This document shows, piece by piece, positions 1,377 through 11,314 of a DNA stretch of 11,341 nucleotides (position 1 is its first letter; each line of letters begins with the position of its first letter). This stretch comes from Verrucomicrobiota bacterium. Its GTDB lineage: Bacteria; Verrucomicrobiota; Verrucomicrobiia; Limisphaerales; Palsa-1400. Under the pieces are notes generated by a model. It saw nothing but the letters and a program-made list of their open reading frames with translations. It made no database searches and had not been told where the DNA came from. The translations under genes and the position numbers were made by a program. The stretch spans positions 1 to 11,341 of the forward strand of contig JBEKYR010000074.1 in assembly GCA_049510745.1 (NCBI GenBank), given 5' to 3'.

Positions 1377-1781
1377 ATGCTCCTAACGCTGACGACGAGG
1401 CACAGGCCAGCCACGGATACCTACCGAGACACAAGGCTTGGCGGTTTCGATGCGGCTGCCGTGGTGGACGTAATCGAGCATCTTCACCCGCCGCGGCTGG
1501 CTGCGTTCGAGCGCGTGCTTTTTGAATGCGCCAAGCCGAAAACCGTCGTCATCACGACGCCCAATCGTGAATACAATGTGAAATGGGAAACTCTCCCAGC
1601 CGGCAAGTTCCGCCACCGTGATCATCGCTTCGAGTGGACTCGCGAAGAATTTCAGGAATGGGCGCATCGTGTCGGAGCCCGATTCGGTTACGGCGTGCGT
1701 TTCGTTGCCGTTGGGCCAACTGATCCCGTCGTTGGTTCTCCAACGCAGATGGGAATATTTGAAACGAGTTTGCACCTATGA
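1377..1781 (+). pseudogene. hen1: Hen1 RNA 3'-terminal 2'-O-methyltransferase with large in-frame internal deletion
   Basis: Typical Hen1 N-terminus MLLTLTTRHRPATD joined directly to C-terminal TYRD...VIEHL...TTPNREYN...FRHRDHRFEWTR...PTQMGIF; only 134 aa, SAM-binding motif I absent. Confidence 0.88.
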
Positions 1782-2653
1782 AATCGAACGCACAATCGAC
1801 CGCCCGGCTTTGGGTTTTGCTTGCGCGTGACGCGCGCGTTGCCGCAATTCTCCGGCGCGGTCCTTCGCGTCAAGTGCAGTTGATAAAGTGGGATTTGAGG
1901 GACGACACATTTGAACATGGCCAGTGGTTCAAAGGACGCATTTATGAGAGGCGGTGTGATTTGTCGCCTGCAGGCGCCCTCCTGATCTATTTCGCAGCAA
2001 CTTACAAGCAGCCACTACAGTCCTGGACTGCCATAAGCAAAGTTCCGTGGTTTACGGCCGTTGCCATGTGGCCGAAAGGTGACGGTTGGAATGGCGGCGG
2101 GTACTTTGTTGGACCCTATGAAATCCATCTGGATCATTCGCAACGCGAAAGTTCGCCACACCCTCAATTTGTCAAGGGTTGTCGAAAAGTCCGCATCTCA
2201 TCATGGGCAACTGCCCGTGGTGAAGACGTACCAGTTTGGCACTTCCTTCTAAAGCGTGACGGCTGGTCACAAACTGCAATCGGGACTTGGGGCGAATATG
2301 GTGAAGCCAAAGGATACGCTTGGAAGGCGAAGACGCCCGAAGAATGGCGAAAGCCACATCCCAAATTGCCAATCCATCTGGAGATGAGAATTGAAGGGAT
2401 CGGCAGGAGGGGTGGGCCTTGGTATTTCATCAATTACCGCGTGGTCAATGACTCAAGCGCAATCGTGGAAGATCTCGGGATTGCTGACTGGGCAGAATGG
2501 GATCGAGACGGAAGTCTACTGTATGCCCGGGACGGGTGTCTTTTCCGGCGCAGATTTTTGAAGCATCAGTCAAAACCGGCGATACAACTTTGGGATTTCA
2601 ATGCGGCCAGGTTCGAGGCGATCGCACCGCCAGCGACAGCGAGAAAGCTTTGA
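1778..2653 (+). CDS. Hypothetical Trp/Gly-rich protein (possibly beta-propeller-like) in the hen1-pnkp operon
   Basis: 291-aa open frame, ATGA overlap with hen1 stop, ends 1 nt before pnkp ATG; DLSPAG and WAEWDRDGSLLY resemble TolB-like blade motifs (weak). Confidence 0.8.
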   Translation: MKSNAQSTARLWVLLARDARVAAILRRGPSRQVQLIKWDLRDDTFEHGQWFKGRIYERRCDLSPAGALLIYFAATYKQPLQSWTAISKVPWFTAVAMWPKGDGWNGGGYFVGPYEIHLDHSQRESSPHPQFVKGCRKVRISSWATARGEDVPVWHFLLKRDGWSQTAIGTWGEYGEAKGYAWKAKTPEEWRKPHPKLPIHLEMRIEGIGRRGGPWYFINYRVVNDSSAIVEDLGIADWAEWDRDGSLLYARDGCLFRRRFLKHQSKPAIQLWDFNAARFEAIAPPATARKL

Positions 2654-2654
2654 T

Positions 2655-3063
2655 ATGACCATTACCATCCCAGAGCTTTCATTCGTCGTCCTGATCGGCG
2701 TGTCCGGTTCCGGCAAAAGCACTTTCGCTCGAAAGCATTTTAAACCGACGGAGATTTTATCGTCCGATTATTGTCGCGGCTTGGTGTCGGACGACGAGAA
2801 CAGCCAGGCGGCGACAAAGGATGCTTTTGAGGTGTTGCAATTCATCGCCCGTAAACGGCTGGCGGCGGGGAAGCTTACCGTCGTGGATGCCACGAATGTG
2901 CAGCCGGAATCGCGCAAGCCGTTTGTGGCAATCGCCCGTGAGTTTCACTGCCTGCCGGCTGCTATTGTGCTGGATTTGCAGGAACGAACCGTTGCGCCGT
3001 GTTCATGAAGCCGTCTTTGGCGTGTTGGCTTTAGAAAGCGAGCCCGTTGACCCGCGGCTCTAT
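2655..3063 (+). pseudogene. pnkp: Polynucleotide kinase-phosphatase-ligase (Pnkp) with large internal deletion
   Basis: N-terminal kinase (GVSGSGKST, LSSDYCRGLVSDDENSQAAT, VVDATNVQ) to ~2987, then in another frame the Pnkp extreme C-terminus EPLRRVHEAVFGVLALESEPVDPRL (2986-3060). Confidence 0.9.
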
Positions 3064-5882: not shown

Positions 5883-5945
5883 GCAAAATATTTGTAAAAT
5901 TTGCAAAATATTTCTTGCATGTAACCAGTGACATGTGCTATACGT
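5883..5945 (+). promoter_or_regulatory. Putative sigma70-type promoter of the tRNA array with AT-rich UP region and internal operator-like palindrome
   Basis: TTGCAT (5915-5920), TGn-TATACG (5936-5944), repeated GCAAAATATTT upstream, CATGTAAC-ca-GTGACATG (5918-5935). Confidence 0.55.
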
Positions 5946-5956
5946 CTTTAAGTTCG

Positions 5957-6127
5957 ATGAAGACTTGCTTAAACATATCAGCCACGAGTTGGCCGACGAT
6001 GGCGGTCGCGAAAGCGACACGTCATAGCCGGTACACCCAAGGCTATGTGTTTAGCCTTGGACTATCCTTGGCATCCATCGGGAAACAGCCCGAGGGTAAT
6101 TTGGATAGACACGGTGTAGGCAGGTAA
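5957..6127 (+). CDS. Putative attenuator leader peptide (56 aa)
   Basis: ATG just downstream of predicted -10; stop 21 nt before terminator; all 20 amino acids and 46 distinct codons; last codons complementary to terminator 5' arm. Confidence 0.65.
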   Translation: MKTCLNISATSWPTMAVAKATRHSRYTQGYVFSLGLSLASIGKQPEGNLDRHGVGR

Positions 6128-6148
6128 CGAATCGAAACAGAATTTTTC

Positions 6149-6185
6149 ACCCTGCTTACCCCGCGTAGGCAGGGTTTTTTATTTT
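6149..6185 (+). terminator. Intrinsic terminator (attenuator) ahead of the tRNA array
   Basis: ACCCTGCTTAC-cccgc-GTAGGCAGGGT 11-bp stem (one G:U) followed by TTTTTATTTT. Confidence 0.88.
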
Positions 6186-6474
6186 CCCTGTATGACTGAG
6201 ACGAGAATGGCAGATAACGAAAGACGAACGATCTGTGAACAAGAATAGAGCGACATCCAGGTGATGTCTTTTGGTGACAATTTGAATTTGGCGAGGACGA
6301 GCAGAGAAGCCTCACCGGTGGGGTCTGCCCACGACCAGAAGACAGCGTCACCAAGACGAACGAGACGAATTTTAGATTTACAAATTAAGGGCTTCGCAGG
6401 AGGTGTGCCCCTAAACACCGAAACAGCCGCCGTGAAACCGCGGGTTGGGATCGAATAGATCGCCAAGAGGTGTT

Positions 6475-6490
6475 TGTTCTTTGTTGAAAT
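6475..6490 (+). promoter_or_regulatory. boxA-like antitermination motif
   Basis: TGTTCTTTG directly upstream of the first tRNA-like element; resembles rrn boxA TGCTCTTT. Confidence 0.45.
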
Positions 6491-6495
6491 GGCAT

Positions 6496-6559
6496 GGGCC
6501 GGGAGCAATTCAAGTGCAGAATGCAAAATGCAGAGTGCGGAATCCTCTCCCGGCCCCCA
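6496..6559 (+). pseudogene. tRNA-like remnant, anticodon arm replaced by heptamer repeats
   Basis: GGGCCGGG/CCCGGCCC stem ending CCA, D-like GCA-attcaag-TGC, T-like AGAG-tgcggaatc-CTCT; centre is AGAATGCAAAATGC. Confidence 0.4.
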
Positions 6560-6597: not shown

Positions 6598-6960
6598 TCA
6601 CCCACTGGATTCCTGGTTACGCCGTGCCGTATTAATCGAGGAGATGGCGATGGCAACGAGTTCATTGGCCTCGCGCAGCAGGTCGGCGGCGTTTGTGTTT
6701 GCCTTGCCCGACTCCCGCAACAACTCAATCCAATAGGCAGATTCATCAGCCTCTTCGAGCACTGTCCCCATTTTGGAGATGAAGTCGGCTTTGGACTTGG
6801 CGCGACAGGCAGCGCGATAGTTCGCCCCAACCGAGCATCCGGATCGAAGCAGCTGTCGCCCAAGGGTTTTGCCTATGTCGTCCTTTGGCAGACTTTCGCA
6901 GAATTTCATCACTTTGAGCGCAAAATGTTTCGTTCGAAGTTGTAGATTCTCGTGTTTCAT
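6598..6960 (-). CDS. Four-helix bundle protein (23S rRNA intervening-sequence protein-like family)
   Basis: 120 aa; LGRQLLRSGCSVGANYRAACRAKSKADFISKMGTVLEEADESAYWIELL signature; flanked by inverted heptamer repeats. Confidence 0.92.
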   Translation of the reverse strand: MKHENLQLRTKHFALKVMKFCESLPKDDIGKTLGRQLLRSGCSVGANYRAACRAKSKADFISKMGTVLEEADESAYWIELLRESGKANTNAADLLREANELVAIAISSINTARRNQESSG

Positions 6961-7003: not shown

Positions 7004-7075
7004 AGGCTGAGCGTCAGCACGCGGCCGAGTCTCCAAAACTCAGCTTACTCCGGGCGGCACGGAGGCAGCCTGCCA
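7004..7075 (+). tRNA. trnW: tRNA-Trp(CCA), atypical
   Basis: AGGCTG/CAGCCT acceptor, G73, CCA; GAGT-ctCCAaa-ACTC; T arm CTCCG-ggcggca-CGGAG; short D arm. Confidence 0.7.
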
Positions 7076-7081
7076 TTTTCC

Positions 7082-7156
7082 GGGGTCGTGGCAGACAAGC
7101 AATGCACTTGCCTTGCAAGCAAGTTTATATGGGAGCGTTACCCATCGACTCCACCA
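7082..7156 (+). tRNA. trnA: tRNA-Ala(TGC)
   Basis: GGGGTCG/CGACTCC with G3:U70, A73, CCA; CTTGC-ctTGCaa-GCAAG; T loop AGCGTTA. Confidence 0.9.
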
Positions 7157-7256
7157 GCCTTCGCCCGCTGCGTGTCAGCGGGCGAAGGCTGCCCGCCATA
7201 GCTTTAGCGACGGCGGGCCTTATCGTTCATCCTGCGCGGCTACGGCTGGCAGGCCA
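7157..7256. repeat. REP-like spacer module
   Basis: Starts GCCTTCGC directly after CCA, nested hairpins, ends GCTACGGCTGGCAGGCCA. Confidence 0.75.
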
Positions 7257-7262
7257 TTTCAC

Positions 7263-7340
7263 TGCGGGGAACTCGACTAAAGCACAGAGGACGGTCTCAT
7301 AAACCGTTTGAGGCAGGTGTGATTCCTGCCCCCGCTACCA
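7263..7340 (+). tRNA. trnM: tRNA-Met(CAT), initiator-like acceptor
   Basis: TGCGGGG/CCCCGCT with 1:72 mismatch, A73, CCA; ACGGT-ctCATaa-ACCGT; T loop TGTGATT. Confidence 0.85.
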
Positions 7341-7346
7341 ATTTCC

Positions 7347-7434
7347 GGGAAGTGATCCGGCTGCCGGTCTGTAAAACCGGTGTCTTCAAACAAGCTGGAA
7401 GCGACGACTGGAGCATTACCAGCACTTCCCACCA
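7347..7434 (+). tRNA. trnY: tRNA-Tyr(GTA), D-armless, 8/4-type fold
   Basis: GGGAAGTG/CACTTCCC, A73, CCA; CCGGT-ctGTAaa-ACCGG; 27-nt variable region; CTGG-agcatta-CCAG. Confidence 0.75.
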
Positions 7435-7535
7435 GCCTTCGCCGCCGCGTAGCGGGGGGCAAAGGCTGCCGCGCCGTAGCTTTAGCGAAGGCGGGCTTTA
7501 TGCACCGTCCTGAGCGGCTACGGCTCGGCAAGCCA
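7435..7535. repeat. REP-like spacer module
   Basis: GCCTTCGC...CGCCGTAGCTTTAGCGAAGGCG...GCTACGGCTCGGCAAGCCA; same layout as 7157-7256. Confidence 0.75.
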
Positions 7536-7539
7536 TTTC

Positions 7540-7619
7540 GGACTCGTAGCTCAATCAGTCCCGACGAGTCGGGATTGTCTGCGGGAGGGTTGAGGGTGCA
7601 ACTCCCTTCGGGTCCGCCA
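7540..7619 (+). pseudogene. trnD: tRNA-Asp(GTC)-derived gene disrupted by a small palindrome
   Basis: GGACTCG/CGGGTCC, G73, CCA, T arm intact, GTC at 7577-7579; D-stem 3' strand and anticodon 5' strand replaced by GTCCCGAC-ga-GTCGGGAT. Confidence 0.65.
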
Positions 7620-7620
7620 T

Positions 7621-7695
7621 CAGCGCGTAGTGTAGGAGCAACATGCTTGGCCTGGGACCAAGTGACCGCAGGTGCAAGTCCTGCCGCGCTGACCA
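7621..7695 (+). tRNA. trnP: tRNA-Pro(TGG), C33
   Basis: CAGCGCG/CGCGCTG (C1:G72), A73, CCA; CTTGG-ccTGGga-CCAAG; T loop TGCAAGT. Confidence 0.88.
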
Positions 7696-7702
7696 TTTCG
7701 AC

Positions 7703-7778
7703 GCTGCCGTGGCCGAACATATCAGGCATCCGTCTTCTAAGCGGATAGATGCAGGTGAGAATCCTGCCGGCAGCGCCA
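7703..7778 (+). tRNA. trnR: tRNA-Arg(TCT)
   Basis: GCTGCCG/CGGCAGC, CCA; TCCGT-ctTCTaa-GCGGA; T loop TGAGAAT. Confidence 0.88.
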
Positions 7779-7779
7779 T

Positions 7780-7854
7780 TGCCAGGTGGTGTCAAAGTAG
7801 CACGGCGGCCTGTTAAGCCGCGAGGTGTTGGTGCAAGTCCAACTCTGGCAGCCA
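7780..7854 (+). tRNA. trnN: tRNA-Asn(GTT)
   Basis: TGCCAGG/TCTGGCA (U1:A72), G73, CCA; GCGGC-ctGTTaa-GCCGC. Confidence 0.9.
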
Positions 7855-7861
7855 ATTTTAC

Positions 7862-7952
7862 GGAGGGCAGGCAGATATAAGCTGGCTGCGCCTGTCCCGA
7901 AAACAGGATCGGCTCAAACCCGAGGTCGGAGCGTTACCGACGCCCTCCGCCA
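7862..7952 (+). tRNA. trnS: tRNA-Ser(CGA), C33
   Basis: GGAGGGC/GCCCTCC, G73, CCA; CCTGT-ccCGAaa-ACAGG; long variable arm; T loop AGCGTTA. Confidence 0.88.
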
Positions 7953-7986
7953 GCCTTCGCTCTCCGAGCTACGGCTCGGCAAGCCA
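7953..7986. repeat. Minimal REP-like spacer module
   Basis: GCCTTCGC-tctccga-GCTACGGCTCGGCAAGCCA. Confidence 0.75.
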
Positions 7987-8014
7987 ATTCAAACCCTTAA
8001 CGAAAGGAAATCCC

Positions 8015-8170
8015 ATGAAGCCCGTCCTGCGCTATCAAAGCCAGTTGCTCTTTCGCAAGAGCTATAAACCACGTCGTGTCATTCGCATCCGACCGACCGT
8101 AAAGCTGAATCTTGTGTTCCGCCCTGCGCACCGGTTCGGCGTGAAACCGCAATTAATCACCGTCTCGTAG
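8015..8170 (+). CDS. Small highly basic hypothetical protein (51 aa)
   Basis: GAAAGGAA Shine-Dalgarno-like motif before ATG; 13 K/R, no D/E; stop overlaps 5' end of tRNA-Ile. Confidence 0.5.
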   Translation: MKPVLRYQSQLLFRKSYKPRRVIRIRPTVKLNLVFRPAHRFGVKPQLITVS

Positions 8171-8231
8171 CTCAAAAGCAGAGCCTCCGGTCGATAACCG
8201 GAAGAAGCAGGAGCGTTACCTGCCGGGACGA
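8161..8231 (+). tRNA. trnI: tRNA-Ile(GAT), C33, CCA displaced by insertion
   Basis: CGTCTCG/CGGGACG, A73; GCTC/GAGC D stem; TCCGG-tcGATaa-CCGGA; T loop AGCGTTA. Confidence 0.82.
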
Positions 8232-8363
8232 TCCGCCTTCGCCCTTCGGGCTACGGCGGACAGGCCAGCCTTCGCTCTTCGCTGCGCTACGAGCTACGGC
8301 TCGGCAAGCCCTGCGAATTCGCACTGAAGTTCATCGCGCCGTAGCGCGTAGCGCGAAGGCGGA
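8232..8363. repeat. Composite REP-like spacer (three units)
   Basis: TCCGCCTTCGCC..GCTACGGCGGA, GCCTTCGC..GCTACGGCTCGGCAAGCC and inverted CGCCGTAGC..GCGAAGGCGGA. Confidence 0.75.
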
Positions 8364-8438
8364 CCCCGAGTAGCTGAGGCAGATTAGCGCCTCCCTGAAG
8401 AGGAGGAGACGTTGGCGCGATACCAACCTCGGGGGCCA
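8364..8438 (+). tRNA. trnF: tRNA-Phe(GAA)
   Basis: CCCCGAG/CTCGGGG, CCA; CCTCC-ctGAAga-GGAGG; T loop CGCGATA; unusual G73. Confidence 0.85.
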
Positions 8439-8459
8439 TTTGTTGGCCCTATGCAAGTA

Positions 8460-8537
8460 GTCCGTGAATGCAAAGCAGCTCGCGCAGCCGGCCCTTCAAG
8501 CCGGGCCTAATCGGTGCAAGTCCGATCACGGATGCCA
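8460..8537 (+). tRNA. trnE: tRNA-Glu(TTC), C33
   Basis: GTCCGTG/CACGGAT, G73, CCA; CCGGC-ccTTCaa-GCCGG; ATCGG-tgcaagt-CCGAT. Confidence 0.85.
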
Positions 8538-8542
8538 CTCTT

Positions 8543-8639
8543 AAATGCAGAATTGAGAATGCAGAATGCAGAATTGCGTCAAACGCAGTGGGGCTTGGCG
8601 CCTTTTCATTCTTCATTCATCATTCTGCCTTCTGCATTT
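8543..8639. repeat. Inverted heptamer-repeat hairpin (GAATGCA)n...(CATTCT)n without cargo ORF
   Basis: AAATGCAGAA (8543-8552) complementary to TTCTGCATTT (8630-8639); 7-nt periodicity on both arms. Confidence 0.75.
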
Positions 8640-8646
8640 CCGCAAA

Positions 8647-8722
8647 GCCCCCGTGCCTCAGAAGCGACAGGGCGAGTTTCGTAAACTCGTAATCGTCGGT
8701 GCGAGTCCGACCAGGGGCTCCA
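8647..8722 (+). tRNA. trnT: tRNA-Thr(CGT)
   Basis: GCCCCCG/CAGGGGC (one mismatch), CCA; CGAGT-ttCGTaa-ACTCG; GTCGG-tgcgagt-CCGAC. Confidence 0.85.
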
Positions 8723-8820
8723 ATTCAGTCAGTGAATTGATGGTTCAGTGAATGAGCGAGGGGGACGGGTTTATGGCCGCTTGCCTCCAATTCACTGACT
8801 CAGTGATTCGCTGATTCTCA
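8723..8820. repeat. Inverted degenerate octamer-repeat hairpin
   Basis: AGTCAGTGAATTG complementary to CAATTCACTGACT; AGTGAAT/ATTCACT-type units. Confidence 0.65.
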
Positions 8821-8832
8821 AACTGTTTTCCT

Positions 8833-8907
8833 GGTGATCATGATGTAACAGCAGCATCACGCCCCGTGACGGCGTTTGTGCCGGTGCGAATCCGGTTGGT
8901 CACCCCA
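8833..8907 (+). tRNA. trnH: tRNA-His(GTG), C33
   Basis: G-1:C73, GTGATCA/TGGTCAC, CCA; ACGCC-ccGTGac-GGCGT; T loop TGCGAAT. Confidence 0.88.
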
Positions 8908-8918
8908 ATTTCGACAGG

Positions 8919-9049
8919 CCGAAGTTGATCGGTGAGGCATGACCTCCAACGGCTTCACCCTCTCCGACCCAAACGACCGCGGGATGCTGGACGTGGTTGG
9001 CTTCGACACGACGGTGCCGGCGGTCATCGCGGACTTTGTTCGCGAATAG
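8919..9049 (+). pseudogene. C-terminal remnant of Ro60/Rsr (TROVE-vWA) RNA-binding protein
   Basis: 8936-9049 translates [37 protein letters not shown], matching the conserved Ro60 C-terminus (F(S/T)[16 protein letters not shown]); PKLI just upstream in another frame. Confidence 0.8.
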
Positions 9050-9110
9050 CGAACGGTTCAAGGACGCCAGGAACAACGCGGGCGGAGGCGAGAATCTCCG
9101 CCCGCTCTTT
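9029..9110 (+). repeat. 82-bp direct repeat copy 1 (Ro60 3' end plus terminator-like hairpin)
   Basis: 75/82 identical to 9783-9864; contains GCGGGCGGAG-n8-CTCCGCCCGC followed by TCTTTTT. Confidence 0.9.
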
Positions 9111-9144
9111 TTCACTTAAACCCTTCACAATTATGAAAGGACGT

Positions 9145-9750
9145 ATGAAAACTAAGCGCACCAAACGCCAATCCAAATTGACGTTCAGGTTGAGATCTTA
9201 CGGCAGCTACATTGACGAGGCCTATCAACTTGAAGCGACGCTTGCCAAGAAGCCTGCTCGTCTGCAGATCGACATGGTGGGATCAGGCGAGATTCCGCCC
9301 GATGCCGCGCTCCTCATGCGATCCATCCTGCAAAAACGATCGCCCAAGACGCGTCTTGTCACGAACGCGCGCTCCAGTCTTCAAGGATCTTCCGTTCTCA
9401 TCTGGTTGCTCGGCGACACGAGAATCATCCGCGAAGACGCGCGCCTGCAGTTCCGTTCCGCCGGCGCATTCTCAACCGATGCCGATACGGCTTGGAAAGA
9501 TCGCAGCTTCTTCGATGACGACCCATTCGAAGAAGAGGACTACCTCAAGGTGCTTCAAGCTATCAACGAATTCCTTCCCGTTAAGGAATTAGCCGGACAT
9601 CCGATCGAAGTCCCGGTCTTGAAGGAATTTGGACTGGTGGACAACGAAAAGCTGGACGACTTGCTCGCCACCGCCTTTCAAACGGCGAAAGAAACCGGCG
9701 AAAAGCAGCGGCCAAAGCCTAAAACGATTGCGAAAGTACCAAGCCAGTGA
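9145..9750 (+). CDS. Hypothetical protein, divergent ClpP/crotonase-like fold, probably non-catalytic
   Basis: AAAGGA RBS before ATG 9145 (alternative ATG 9133); LQIDMVGSG...LVTNARSSLQGSSVLIWLLGDTR...ARLQFR and LKEFGLVD align by eye with ClpP motifs. Confidence 0.65.
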   Translation: MKTKRTKRQSKLTFRLRSYGSYIDEAYQLEATLAKKPARLQIDMVGSGEIPPDAALLMRSILQKRSPKTRLVTNARSSLQGSSVLIWLLGDTRIIREDARLQFRSAGAFSTDADTAWKDRSFFDDDPFEEEDYLKVLQAINEFLPVKELAGHPIEVPVLKEFGLVDNEKLDDLLATAFQTAKETGEKQRPKPKTIAKVPSQ

Positions 9751-9782
9751 CTCCGACGAAGACGGCGGCACTGAAGCCTGAT

Positions 9783-9864
9783 GCGGACTTTGTTCGTGAA
9801 ACGCGAACGGTTCAAGGACGCCAGGAACAACGCGGGCGGAGGCGGAAGTCTCCGCCCGCCCTTT
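9783..9864 (+). repeat. 82-bp direct repeat copy 2
   Basis: 75/82 identical to 9029-9110; hairpin stem conserved, loop diverged. Confidence 0.9.
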
Positions 9865-9903
9865 AATCTGGATAACAACTCTGCTTTGAAGTTTAAGTGA
9901 TGT

Positions 9904-10650
9904 ATGCGTTTGCACGTTCTCTGTGATCTGCACTTGGAATTTGGGCCGGTCAGAATCCCGCCCGCCGATGCCGATGTGGTGGTGTTGGCCGGAGACATTG
10001 ATCTTGATCGCGGGGGTTGCCAATGGGCGCAATCCCACTTTCCAGTCAAACCCGTCATTTATGTTTTGGGCAATCACGAGTTTTATCGCCATTCCTTGCC
10101 AGCCTTGACAGAGGATTTAAAACGGGAAACTGAAAACAGCCATATTCATGTGCTTGAAAACGACGCCGTCGAAATCGGCGGCTACACGTTTCTGGGATGC
10201 ACGTTGTGGACCGATTTTCAATTGTCAGGCGACGCGGAAGCAGCGATGCGGGTCGCAGAGGGGTTGATGAACGATTACAGGGTCATTCAGTTTAACCCCA
10301 AAAATCGCGCGTTGCGTGCCAGCGACACCGTTCGGCTGCATACCGAGTCCGTCGCCTGGATGCGCAAGGCTTTGGCGAAATGCAATCCCGCGCGCACTAT
10401 CGTGGTGACACATCATGCGCCGAGCGCCCGGGCCGAGGCCCCATATCATGCCGACAGCCCGCTCAAGCCGGCATTTTCGTCCAACTTGGATAATTTGATT
10501 GAGAAGAGCGGCGTTCCGTTGTGGATTTTCGGGCACACGCATTACAACGTGGAATACACGATTGGTTCCACCCGCGTCTTGACGAATCAGCGCGGTTATC
10601 CATCGGAAGGGTGTCGAGGCTTCGATCCTGGGTTGGTCATCGAAGTCTGA
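9904..10650 (+). CDS. Calcineurin-like metallophosphoesterase
   Basis: 248 aa; DLH, LAGD, GNHE, THH, GHTH metal-binding motifs, TNQRGY C-terminus. Confidence 0.93.
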   Translation: MRLHVLCDLHLEFGPVRIPPADADVVVLAGDIDLDRGGCQWAQSHFPVKPVIYVLGNHEFYRHSLPALTEDLKRETENSHIHVLENDAVEIGGYTFLGCTLWTDFQLSGDAEAAMRVAEGLMNDYRVIQFNPKNRALRASDTVRLHTESVAWMRKALAKCNPARTIVVTHHAPSARAEAPYHADSPLKPAFSSNLDNLIEKSGVPLWIFGHTHYNVEYTIGSTRVLTNQRGYPSEGCRGFDPGLVIEV

Positions 10651-10656
10651 GAAAAC

Positions 10657-10731
10657 ATCCCGTTGGCCGAGCAGCCCAGGCGGCGGTCTGCAGAACCGCA
10701 AAGGCTGGTGCAACCCCAGCACGGGATTCCA
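10657..10731 (+). tRNA. trnC: tRNA-Cys(GCA)
   Basis: ATCCCGT/ACGGGAT, U73, CCA; GCGGT-ctGCAga-ACCGC; GCTGG-tgcaacc-CCAGC. Confidence 0.88.
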
Positions 10732-10737
10732 ATTCTC

Positions 10738-10809
10738 CGGGCATAGGTGTTGAGAGAAACACGCCGGTCTTCCAAACCGGAATACAGGGCGCGATACCCC
10801 GATGCCCGA
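10738..10809 (+). tRNA. trnG: tRNA-Gly(TCC), atypical acceptor end, CCA displaced
   Basis: CGGGCAT/ATGCCCG; GTGT/ACAC D stem; CCGGT-ctTCCaa-ACCGG; T loop CGCGATA; ends uncertain by 1 nt. Confidence 0.75.
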
Positions 10810-10874
10810 TCCGCCTTCGCCGGGGGCTACGGCGGACAGGCCAGCCTTCGCCAAGGCTACGGCTTGGCAAGCCA
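10810..10874. repeat. Composite REP-like spacer (two units)
   Basis: TCCGCCTTCGCC-ggg-GGCTACGGCGGACAGG-CCA-GCCTTCGC-caag-GCTACGGCTTGGCAAGCCA. Confidence 0.75.
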
Positions 10875-10878
10875 CTTC

Positions 10879-10956
10879 CGCGACGCGAACACCGGTGCCG
10901 GCCAGGGTTTCACAGACCTGGCTGCGGTGGTTCAACTCCGCCTTCGTGTCGCGTCC
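10879..10956 (+). tRNA. tRNA-like element, best read as aberrant tRNA-Val(CAC)
   Basis: 11-bp closing stem CGCGACGCGAA/TTCGTGTCGCG, GCCAGG..ttCACag..CCTGGC arm with a bulge, GGTGG-ttcaact-CCGCC T arm, no full CCA. Confidence 0.45.
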
Positions 10957-11031
10957 GGGTTGCAAACTTTTACAGTGAAGTCCCGGCTCTTAACCGGCGA
11001 GAACGCGGTGCAATTCCGCGGCAACCCACCA
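10957..11031 (+). tRNA. trnK: tRNA-Lys(CTT)
   Basis: GGGTTGC/GCAACCC, A73, CCA; CCGG-ctCTTaa-CCGG; CGCGG-tgcaatt-CCGCG. Confidence 0.87.
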
Positions 11032-11140
11032 AATTCAGTCAATGAGTTTACGAATTAGTGAATCAGTGAATTTGCATCGGAACATCATCATCGTTGAATT
11101 CACAAACTCACTAACTCATTGATTCATCAATTCACTCATT
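11032..11140. repeat. Inverted degenerate octamer-repeat hairpin
   Basis: TCAATGAGTT..AGTGAATC-AGTGAATT versus AATTCAC..AACTCACT-AACTCATTGA; same family as 8723-8820. Confidence 0.65.
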
Positions 11141-11146
11141 GGTTTC

Positions 11147-11223
11147 GCTCCCGTAGCTCAAAGTATTAGAGTGCGACGCTTCGAACGTCGCGGTTGCAGG
11201 TGAGAGTCCTGCCGGTAGTGCCA
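11147..11223 (+). tRNA. trnR: tRNA-Arg(TCG)
   Basis: GCTCCCG/CGGTAGT (one mismatch), CCA; CGACG-ctTCGaa-CGTCG; GCAGG-tgagagt-CCTGC. Confidence 0.85.
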
Positions 11224-11230
11224 CTTTCAC

Positions 11231-11314
11231 GGGCATGTGGTTCAACCCGAACAGCAGAGGGTCCAGACTCAGACTCTGGCAGCCTTGGGGGTGCAAGTCC
11301 CTTCATGCCCACCA
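11231..11314 (+). tRNA. trnL: tRNA-Leu(CAG), short variable region, enlarged D region
   Basis: GGGCATG/CATGCCC, A73, CCA; CCAGA-ctCAGac-TCTGG; 7-nt variable region; T loop TGCAAGT. Confidence 0.72.

Follow-up and report, generated by a model that had tools for sequence, protein, structure and literature searches.

The Anabaena sp. PCC 7120 trn operon is a described long tRNA array (L-array), and 23 of its 26 operonic tRNAs are reportedly charged in vivo (PMC8421152). The 8/4 allo-tRNAs and irregular polycistronic tRNAs, found in soil and peat RNA data, are another related group (Mukai et al., PMC5389517). Here we analyse a tRNA array in an 11,341-nucleotide stretch from a Verrucomicrobiota bacterium (GenBank assembly GCA_049510745.1, contig JBEKYR010000074.1, forward strand), hereafter the window, which makes up all of contig C74 in a genome of 5.6 Mb and 94% completeness. 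Its 20 tRNA-like genes, recovered by script and hand parsing, all lie on the plus strand at 7004-11314 (Table 1), and nearly all of them depart from the standard tRNA elbow. The G18-pseudouridine 55 contact that they lack is conserved as few others are in biology, and whether it is necessary is an old question.

The array is an L-array of the Anabaena trn type, an assignment that rests on its continuation into contig C75, which holds further G55 tRNAs, a HipA-like/HTH pair and RibD-C-like, HNH and truncated RtcB-like genes. A second, paralogous array carrying the same leader lies on contig C73. The features shared with the Anabaena operon (PMC8421152) are a long, non-periodic run of genes on one strand, a supernumerary set (42 dispersed tRNAs were parsed elsewhere in the genome), an HNH neighbour, a link to the RNA-repair genes RtcB and Hen1-Pnkp, patchy spread and short-arm Leu tRNAs. 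The two differ in their control, since the Anabaena operon has promoter direct repeats and, reportedly, the repressor TrcR (PMC10272220), whereas the array here has an apparent leader-peptide attenuator. They also differ in the elbow: of the 19 genes parsed in the Anabaena operon (NC_003273), 17 keep G18/U55 and 2 have G55, whereas G55 stands in 19/20 genes here, and the idea that the Anabaena array is likewise a G55 array was rejected. Its two G55 genes are Glu(CUC) and Ile(GAU), the latter combining A18 with G54/G58. The operonic Ile(GAU) reportedly gives a charged band of aberrant mobility in vivo (PMC8421152), and this band is the sole experimental evidence for a tRNA with A18/G55 being produced and aminoacylated. 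The elbow, G18, U55 and the T-loop go unmentioned in the main text of PMC8421152.

With the 8/4 and irregular polycistronic tRNAs the Tyr gene of the array shares an 8-bp acceptor and a 4-bp T stem, and the array as a whole shares clustering near toxin-antitoxin genes; the accessible main text of PMC5389517 makes no mention of G55, U55, G18 or Verrucomicrobia, nor does that of PMC7609411 of G55. A literature search, mostly of open-access texts without figures, returned no account of an A18/G55 swap, nor of tRNA genes controlled by a leader attenuator. Suppressor tRNAs selected in vivo by the Steinberg group (Zagryadskaya 2003, Doyon 2004) reportedly had G54-G58 and purine-rich elbows that supported suppression in E. 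coli; those were laboratory selections on one tRNA, whereas the elbow set here is natural and array-wide. L-arrays with HNH and RtcB are already known, and the elbow swap seems unreported. Under-annotation may explain this, as ARAGORN recovers 8/20 of the array genes, with noise only at a lowered threshold, and Rfam 13/20 at E<=1.

An alternative elbow across the array

G55 was read in 19 of the 20 T loops, exactly as the original prediction from the letters of the window had it; only Val(CAC) at 10879 departs, and its D-loop segment retains GG. The predicted loss of G18G19 was borne out by hand reading (0/19 of the G55 genes retain it), and the A54/U58 pairs of Ala, Tyr, Ser and Ile and the A56 with AU in the D loop of both Arg genes were likewise found as described. 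Not part of that prediction are the G54/G58 of Trp, the C54/A58 of Phe and Gly, the U56 of Met and the A60 that accompanies both A54/U58 and G54/G58, nor did it include the leader in front of the array or the extension into C75. The accompanying claim that the stems stay paired stands for most genes and fails for Asp, Thr, Arg(UCG), Tyr, Trp, Val and Leu: there is one acceptor mismatch each in Thr and Arg(UCG), and the architecture departs from the standard in Tyr, Trp, Val and Leu. The encoded CCA is not intact in Ile and Gly.

The array stands apart from the rest of the genome, where 41/42 dispersed tRNAs have U55 with GG (G55 in 19/20 versus 1/42, Fisher p = 9e-14). Housekeeping tRNAs with G55 had been named as a finding that would speak against a special array elbow; the only one among the 42 is a stand-alone Glu(CUC) with A18 and G55 on contig C34 (35893-35967; 5894-5968 in locus L330), so that the objection applies marginally. 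This gene shows that A18/G55 is a tolerated alternative, not unique to arrays.

Covariation and switching in homologous loci

BLAST with the array matched 153/401 genomes of the class, many weakly. Forty regions were taken from 38 matching genomes, the strongest multi-gene matches being favoured, and G55 was present in 467/474 unique tRNAs of the fetched regions with at least four genes. A pattern of two adjacent G55 genes retrieved 116 stretches in viral contigs and at least 142 in genome contigs. These samples are biased towards G55 and yield no unbiased frequency. The genes were parsed by stem scores with no requirement on T-loop or D-loop sequence, which gave 2,442 unique genes; the parser loses genes that score low or are oddly built, and tests of the D loop are limited to genes with a parsable D stem. 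The loci are related and partly overlapping, and the permutation values overstate the significance of all covariation statistics given here.

The clearest pattern links positions 18 and 55. Among genes with C56, the D loops of G55 genes contain AG only in 1,391 cases, GG only in 10, both in 76 and neither in 103, while those of U55 genes contain GG only in 429, AG only in 4, both in 51 and neither in 3; intermediates are thus rare among the ~2,080 genes. In the 102 loci with both states, positions 18 and 55 agree in 972 of 977 unambiguous genes, compared with a mean of 655 and a maximum of 700 in within-locus permutations. When only 7-nt D loops are considered, GG is found in 123/123 U55 genes and AG in 506/575 G55 genes. 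The stand-alone Glu(CUC), matched by DNA search in 70/81 genomes of the order, switches in the same way: its 30 closest loci comprise 16 A18/G55, 13 G18/U55, no intermediate and one unparsed gene, and five loci differ from the gene of this genome at 18 and 55 only. A short sequence pattern for this tRNA gave matches at chance level only across the phylum.

The neighbouring positions follow. In 1,563/1,709 G55 genes the D loop has a purine and, next to it on the 3' side, the base complementary to 56 (permutation maximum 1,508), and AG drops to 7/64 with A56 and 2/45 with G56, where AU or AC is found instead, mostly in Arg genes. Positions 54:58 are U/A, A/U or G/G in 420/474 class-level genes (within-anticodon permutation maximum 340), and A60 accompanies A54/U58 in 181/189 and G54/G58 in 154/169 genes. 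The U/A pair is held in 535/564 U55 genes versus 1,268/1,846 G55 genes, by which 54:58 appears to be loosened only once G55 is present; neither this loosening nor the coupling to A60 had been predicted. Stem pairing is equally good in both groups. The covariation at 18:55, 19:56 and 54:58 that had been proposed as a check is therefore present in the homologues at all three places, and their alignment shows 18 and 55 switching jointly, 19 tracking 56, and 54 tracking 58 and 60. Together with a parallel change across isotypes (see below), the three covariations favour a distinct folded elbow under selection rather than decay, as had been proposed, and we have hardly any doubt that the alternative elbow is real.

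Two smaller groups were seen beside this pattern. A small class of C55 tRNAs (viral loci L072-L187) retains G18G19 in 12/15 genes with a parsable D loop, counted over all loci. In arrays with more than 80% G55, U55 is most often retained by CAU-anticodon tRNAs (14/46), several of which have initiator-like 1:72 mismatches.

A riboswitch-type T-loop and the modification enzymes

The T-loops of FMN and cobalamin riboswitches have the form YGNRA, and a near-invariant A that slots in between their positions 4 and 5 makes its bond to the position-2 G at the sugar edge (bioRxiv 2022.12.26.521914). The array tRNAs resemble them in the position-2 G, the purine at position 4 and an A supplied by the partner loop, and for part of the genes in the U-A or C-A closing pair. 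Base 57, equivalent to YGNRA position 4, is a purine in 1,844/1,846 G55 genes, A18 as the partner A covaries with G55, and U-A or C-A occupies YGNRA positions 1/5 in 1,399/1,846 G55 genes; A/U (189) and G/G (169) fall outside the motif. In the accessible text of the same source, a G-G closed rRNA loop is mentioned alongside the YGNRA loops, while A54/U58 with A60 has no counterpart in the riboswitch account, and tRNA loops are treated as a U-at-position-2 class, whereas the array tRNAs have G there. Since A18/G55 maps onto YGNRA and C54/A58 onto CGNRA, the array tRNAs most likely use, by analogy, the riboswitch-type version of the T-loop module. A18 would then intercalate between 57 and 58 and bond the G55 sugar edge as in the riboswitch structures, and the L shape would be retained without pseudouridine.

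The consensus of TruB substrates is 53-GUUYRANYC-61 (PMC7912444). With G55 in 19/20 genes, both the TruB target and this consensus are removed, and the canonical substrate features, U55 within the consensus and G18G19, are absent. A host devoid of TruB was considered and rejected, as the enzyme was found in the host genome and in 151/151 searched genomes of the order. The suggested independence from TrmA is moot, because neither TrmA nor TrmFO scored over the cut-off in this 94%-complete genome; the C-terminal domain of E. coli-type TrmH was not found there, other SpoU-type enzymes being outside the search.

Origin and spread of the elbow

The majority of the adjacent-G55 matches listed belong to Verrucomicrobiota, and others listed come from Myxococcota, Planctomycetota, Acidobacteriota, Gemmatimonadota, Cyanobacteria, Bacteroidota, Gammaproteobacteria and Chloroflexota. 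In plasmid and phage collections, BLAST with the array returned nothing beyond short single-tRNA matches. The patchy distribution is consistent with horizontal spread of the array family. With the loops masked, G55 genes reach a best-of-10 identity of 0.619 with U55 genes that share their amino acid and of 0.563 with G55 genes serving different ones; the former are the nearer in 1,252 of 1,845 comparisons, with 156 ties, and pairs at least 80% alike with opposite elbows were found for 17 anticodons. This resemblance supports a parallel origin of the elbow change across isotypes, as judged from the genes themselves, and disfavours a single G55 ancestor of all array tRNAs.

Isotypes switch unevenly (chi-square 88 versus a permutation maximum of 43). 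In 55 mixed loci G55 is frequent in Phe (21/29), His (17/24), Ile (22/32) and Thr (33/49), and infrequent in Ser (7/38), Arg (12/56), Asn (9/38), Leu (20/77) and Ala (9/34). SerRS, LeuRS, ArgRS, AlaRS and GatCAB contact the elbow, and their isotypes are among the slow switchers, although PheRS also contacts it and Phe switches fast. Mixed arrays range from 10 to 80% G55; among loci with at least eight genes, which overlap and were selected for G55, 65/161 are wholly G55 and 92 at least 90% G55.

Relatives of the locus occur in metatranscriptomes, where 24 runs matched 7-14% of words, and contigs from four runs of four studies span leader and tRNA stretches at at least 85% identity; DNA carry-over is possible, and these contigs were not counted as proof of expression.

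A leader that samples nearly all codons

The leader region preceding the array was matched in 82/251 genomes of the order. It has a conserved open reading frame (ORF) between a predicted promoter and a terminator, and two mutually exclusive hairpins, with the antiterminator strand inside the ORF end (Table 1). Among 46 aligned leaders the ATG is present in 45, one being cut by the locus end, and all 45 are open for 52-59 codons, 41 of them containing all 20 amino acids. The leaders use 42.4 distinct codons on average, compared with 29.7 (maximum 42) in 20,000 equal-length windows of the genome's long ORFs, and 0/1,232 stop-free shuffles reached the 46 codons of the leader in the window. Replacement changes exceed silent ones (818 versus 262), which indicates that codon variety is conserved more than the peptide. 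Folding of the naked RNA 6085-6190 favours the antiterminator, and a three-strand compensatory change was seen in two homologues.

In leader-peptide attenuators of the trpL, hisL, pheL and ilvL type, a short ORF has an end that can pair with the terminator's 5' arm, as does the leader ORF here. Attenuators of the trpL type repeat one codon, whereas this leader samples nearly all codons once and would control tRNAs. On the sequence features just listed, the leader is very probably an attenuator switched on by unfinished leader translation. A ribosome finishing the leader would cover the antiterminator strand and termination would follow at 6150-6180, while stalling at nearly any codon, or lack of translation, would leave that strand free and permit read-through into the array, which would thereby be a rescue tRNA set made upon decoding failure. 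Such a leader would act as a general translation-failure sensor governing tRNA supply.

Further downstream, 21 bases of the leader (6467-6487) have their complement in a trailer on contig C75 (6219-6239 of locus L331) just before the HNH gene, a feature found in 11 fetched loci, some of them redundant. Pairing of the two may join the transcript ends in a long helix comparable to the processing stalk of rRNA, and the segment may resemble boxA. The final 130 bases of leader 6190-6510 are >90% identical across many families, and this leader part has no match in Rfam.

Why G55: possible escape and its rivals

Most array genes are probably functional in translation. For the locus as a whole we lean, by a modest degree of confidence, towards a horizontally spread L-array of spare tRNAs built on the alternative elbow, released by the attenuator upon decoding failure, with G55 favoured by escape from attack. 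We place escape from tRNA-attacking enzymes first as the main driver, although it is a tentative choice, to which we give somewhat less than even odds. G55 would hide the tRNAs from enzymes that recognise them by the standard T loop, and independence from TruB would be a linked benefit. This reading rests on the mobile and viral setting, with the same elbow present on viral contigs, on the repair and toxin neighbours, on a sensor that would fire on tRNA loss, on the wider remodelling of shape and on a known T-loop-cutting nuclease, which cleaves between T and pseudouridine (PMC9086364).

The alternative that modification independence was the main driver, whereby a burst of tRNA made during a translation block outruns TruB and the A18/G55 elbow is stable without the enzyme, seems to us rather unlikely. 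It has in its favour that G55 cannot be pseudouridylated and breaks the TruB consensus (PMC7912444), that TruB loss lowers aminoacylation in E. coli (PMC11214086), and that 54:58 is released from U/A in G55 genes, as expected if TruB recognition holds 54/58. But TruB is present in all searched hosts of the order, the Anabaena operon is induced >100-fold with mostly U55 tRNAs (PMC8421152), and the remodelling of 19:56 and the architectures of Tyr, Trp and Val would be left unexplained. A neutral alternation of two equivalent elbows while selection is relaxed, with descent fixing the state in one array family, would account for the flips of the single-copy Glu(CUC) within the order and for the mixed arrays; it is improbable in view of the many loci that are wholly or at least 90% G55 (bearing their overlap and selection in mind), the separate double change required for each isotype and the switching of only 1/42 dispersed genes.

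Still less probable is that the elbow tags the tRNAs for separate handling, such as fast turnover after stress, or that the RNAs are decoys soaking up toxins and not decoders. The late cleavage of Anabaena operonic tRNAs and the sponge role proposed for them (PMC8421152) point that way, as do array genes that are oddly folded or lack CCA; yet a decoy should mimic the host tRNA and not differ from it at the elbow, CCA is encoded in 1,716/1,846 G55 genes (partly forced by the filter), full anticodon sets are retained, and neither the window nor C75 showed a dedicated decay enzyme. Simple decay of a silent array, to which the Asp insertion, the lost CCA and the truncated neighbours of this copy might be ascribed, is refuted by the rare intermediates, the covarying stems, a pattern conserved across dozens of genomes and a Glu(CUC) that flips without intermediates, and we give it practically no weight.

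Several points weigh against our preferred reading, escape included. Many tRNases cut anticodon loops, and the anticodon loops of the array are ordinary; no cognate nuclease was identified for the array tRNAs. The flip of the stand-alone Glu(CUC) suggests that the two elbows may be nearly equivalent. This copy is decayed in its Asp, Ile and Gly genes, and its RtcB, Hen1 and Pnkp genes are truncated. The attenuator arms are near-invariant and their covariation support is thin, coming from two sequences, and the overstated permutation values apply to the elbow statistics. In Anabaena, the array works with U55 in 17/19 parsed genes, the aberrant Ile(GAU) band leaves room for mischarging, and under stress the operonic tRNAs were cleaved while the tested housekeeping ones were not (PMC8421152).

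A bolder view, which we regard as speculative and rather doubtful, is that Verrucomicrobia and their mobile elements carry a complete second tRNA system. A pan-codon attenuator would respond to the destruction of tRNAs or the arrest of ribosomes by releasing ~35 shape-recoded tRNAs (A18/G55 elbow, shuffled 54:58 and 19:56 pairs, short-arm Leu, pseudoknotted Tyr), which host synthetases and ribosomes would accept and general tRNA-attacking enzymes would not. If true, it would imply a widespread class of T-loop-reading toxins or defence nucleases. The G18-U55 contact is replaced in >1,800 distinct natural genes, and tRNA-Glu(CUC) alleles identical but for two bases make its necessity directly testable. 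TruB-independent, perhaps tRNase-resistant tRNAs could be useful scaffolds for engineered translation.

Unusual tRNA architectures

The Tyr(GUA) gene has no local D arm; a helix formed by 7356-7362 and 7393-7399 crosses the variable stem, and AG follows at 7400-7401. Its bases 10-16 pair with a segment of the variable loop in 265 Watson-Crick cells over 43 unique homologues, two viral loci among them, versus a permutation maximum of 227 (the search pattern fixed part of the 3' strand). The evidence for the variable stem of 3-4 bp enclosing this variable-loop segment is weaker (147 versus a maximum of 150), and the 8-bp acceptor is paired in 334/344 cells, T-stem pairing having served as a filter. 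If both helices form, the product is probably a pseudoknot with a permuted D loop. The gene has the 8-bp acceptor and 4-bp T stem that define 8/4 tRNAs and lacks the local D arm of a cloverleaf; its permuted, pseudoknotted D arm is unlike the 8/4 tRNAs as described in the text of PMC5389517, and it may correspond to the 'E-loop' tRNA of that paper.

The short D arm and extended anticodon stem of Trp 7004-7075 are conserved in 53 homologues. We take this architecture to resemble tRNA-Pyl. The Val(CAC)-like gene at 10879-10952, with ~15 homologues, has no D stem or CCA, an 11-bp terminal helix and a long anticodon stem. In the Leu genes at 11231-11314 and at 1-330 of L331 a very long linker precedes the D stem and may pair with the variable region; one pattern search for an extra helix in such long-D Leu genes gave 0 matches. 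Short-arm Leu tRNAs are common in many other arrays.

Neighbouring and inserted genes

The Asp(GUC) gene is split by a hairpin insertion, as judged against the intact copy on C73, and is probably a pseudogene. Coordinates of the features are collected in Table 1.

Table 1. Features of the window, with positions in the 11,341-nucleotide stretch
Feature	Position	Strand	Remarks
Hen1 fragment	1377-1781	+	TIGR04074, partial; C-terminal part
Pnkp fragment	2655-3008	+	TIGR04075, partial; N-terminal part
Predicted sigma70-type promoter (-35, extended -10)	5915-5945	+	From sequence; similar boxes recur in aligned leaders
56-codon leader ORF	5957-6127	+	All 20 amino acids, 46 different codons
Putative antiterminator strand (last leader codons)	6116-6124	+	Complementary to terminator 5' arm
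Predicted intrinsic terminator hairpin and U tract	6150-6180	+	Arms present in 46/46 aligned leaders
Conserved non-coding leader	6190-6510	+	Several hairpins
Four-helix-bundle gene	6598-6960	-	PF05635, TIGR02436; inserted in leader, absent from C73 paralogue
tRNA-Trp(CCA)	7004-7075	+	G54/G58, G55; short D arm, extended anticodon stem
tRNA-Ala(UGC)	7082-7156	+	A54/U58, G55, A60
tRNA with CAU anticodon	7263-7340	+	G55, U56
tRNA-Tyr(GUA)-like	7347-7434	+	8-bp acceptor, 4-bp T stem, A54/U58, G55
tRNA-Asp(GUC)	7540-7619	+	G55; probable pseudogene
tRNA-Pro(UGG)	7621-7695	+	G55
tRNA-Arg(UCU)	7703-7778	+	G55; A56 with U19
tRNA-Asn(GUU)	7780-7854	+	G55
tRNA-Ser(CGA)	7862-7952	+	G55; A54/U58
tRNA-Ile(GAU)	8161-8231	+	G55; A54/U58
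tRNA-Phe(GAA)	8364-8438	+	G55; C54/A58
tRNA-Glu(UUC)	8460-8537	+	G55
tRNA-Thr(CGU)	8647-8722	+	G55
tRNA-His(GUG)	8834-8907	+	G55
Metallophosphoesterase gene	9904-10650	+	PF00149, E 3e-12; within array
tRNA-Cys(GCA)	10657-10731	+	G55
tRNA-Gly(UCC)	10738-10811	+	G55; C54/A58
tRNA-Val(CAC)-like	10879-10952	+	Sole U55 gene of the array; no D stem
tRNA-Lys(CUU)	10957-11031	+	G55
tRNA-Arg(UCG)	11147-11223	+	G55; A56 with U19
tRNA-Leu(CAG)	11231-11314	+	G55
Overlap with start of C75	11282-11341	+	60 identical bases

Upstream of the array, the Hen1 and Pnkp fragments (1377-3008) flank a 291-aa ORF with no assigned family and form a broken RNA-repair operon. Within the array, a 205-aa ORF (9133-9750) and then the metallophosphoesterase gene sit between the His and Cys genes, and a direct repeat of ~45 bases, found by eye near 9050 and 9803, surrounds the 205-aa ORF. 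On C75 a HipA-like toxin and an HTH antitoxin interrupt the array on the opposite strand (531-2148 of L331), and a duplicated start of the Ser gene surrounds the pair. Palindromic hairpins directly follow tRNA 3' ends at 7157-7257, 7435-7535, 7953-7985, 8232-8362 and 10812-10875, and these elements are mostly missing from the C73 paralogue. A basic 51-codon ORF at 8015-8170, which has no Pfam match, is present in the C73 array too.

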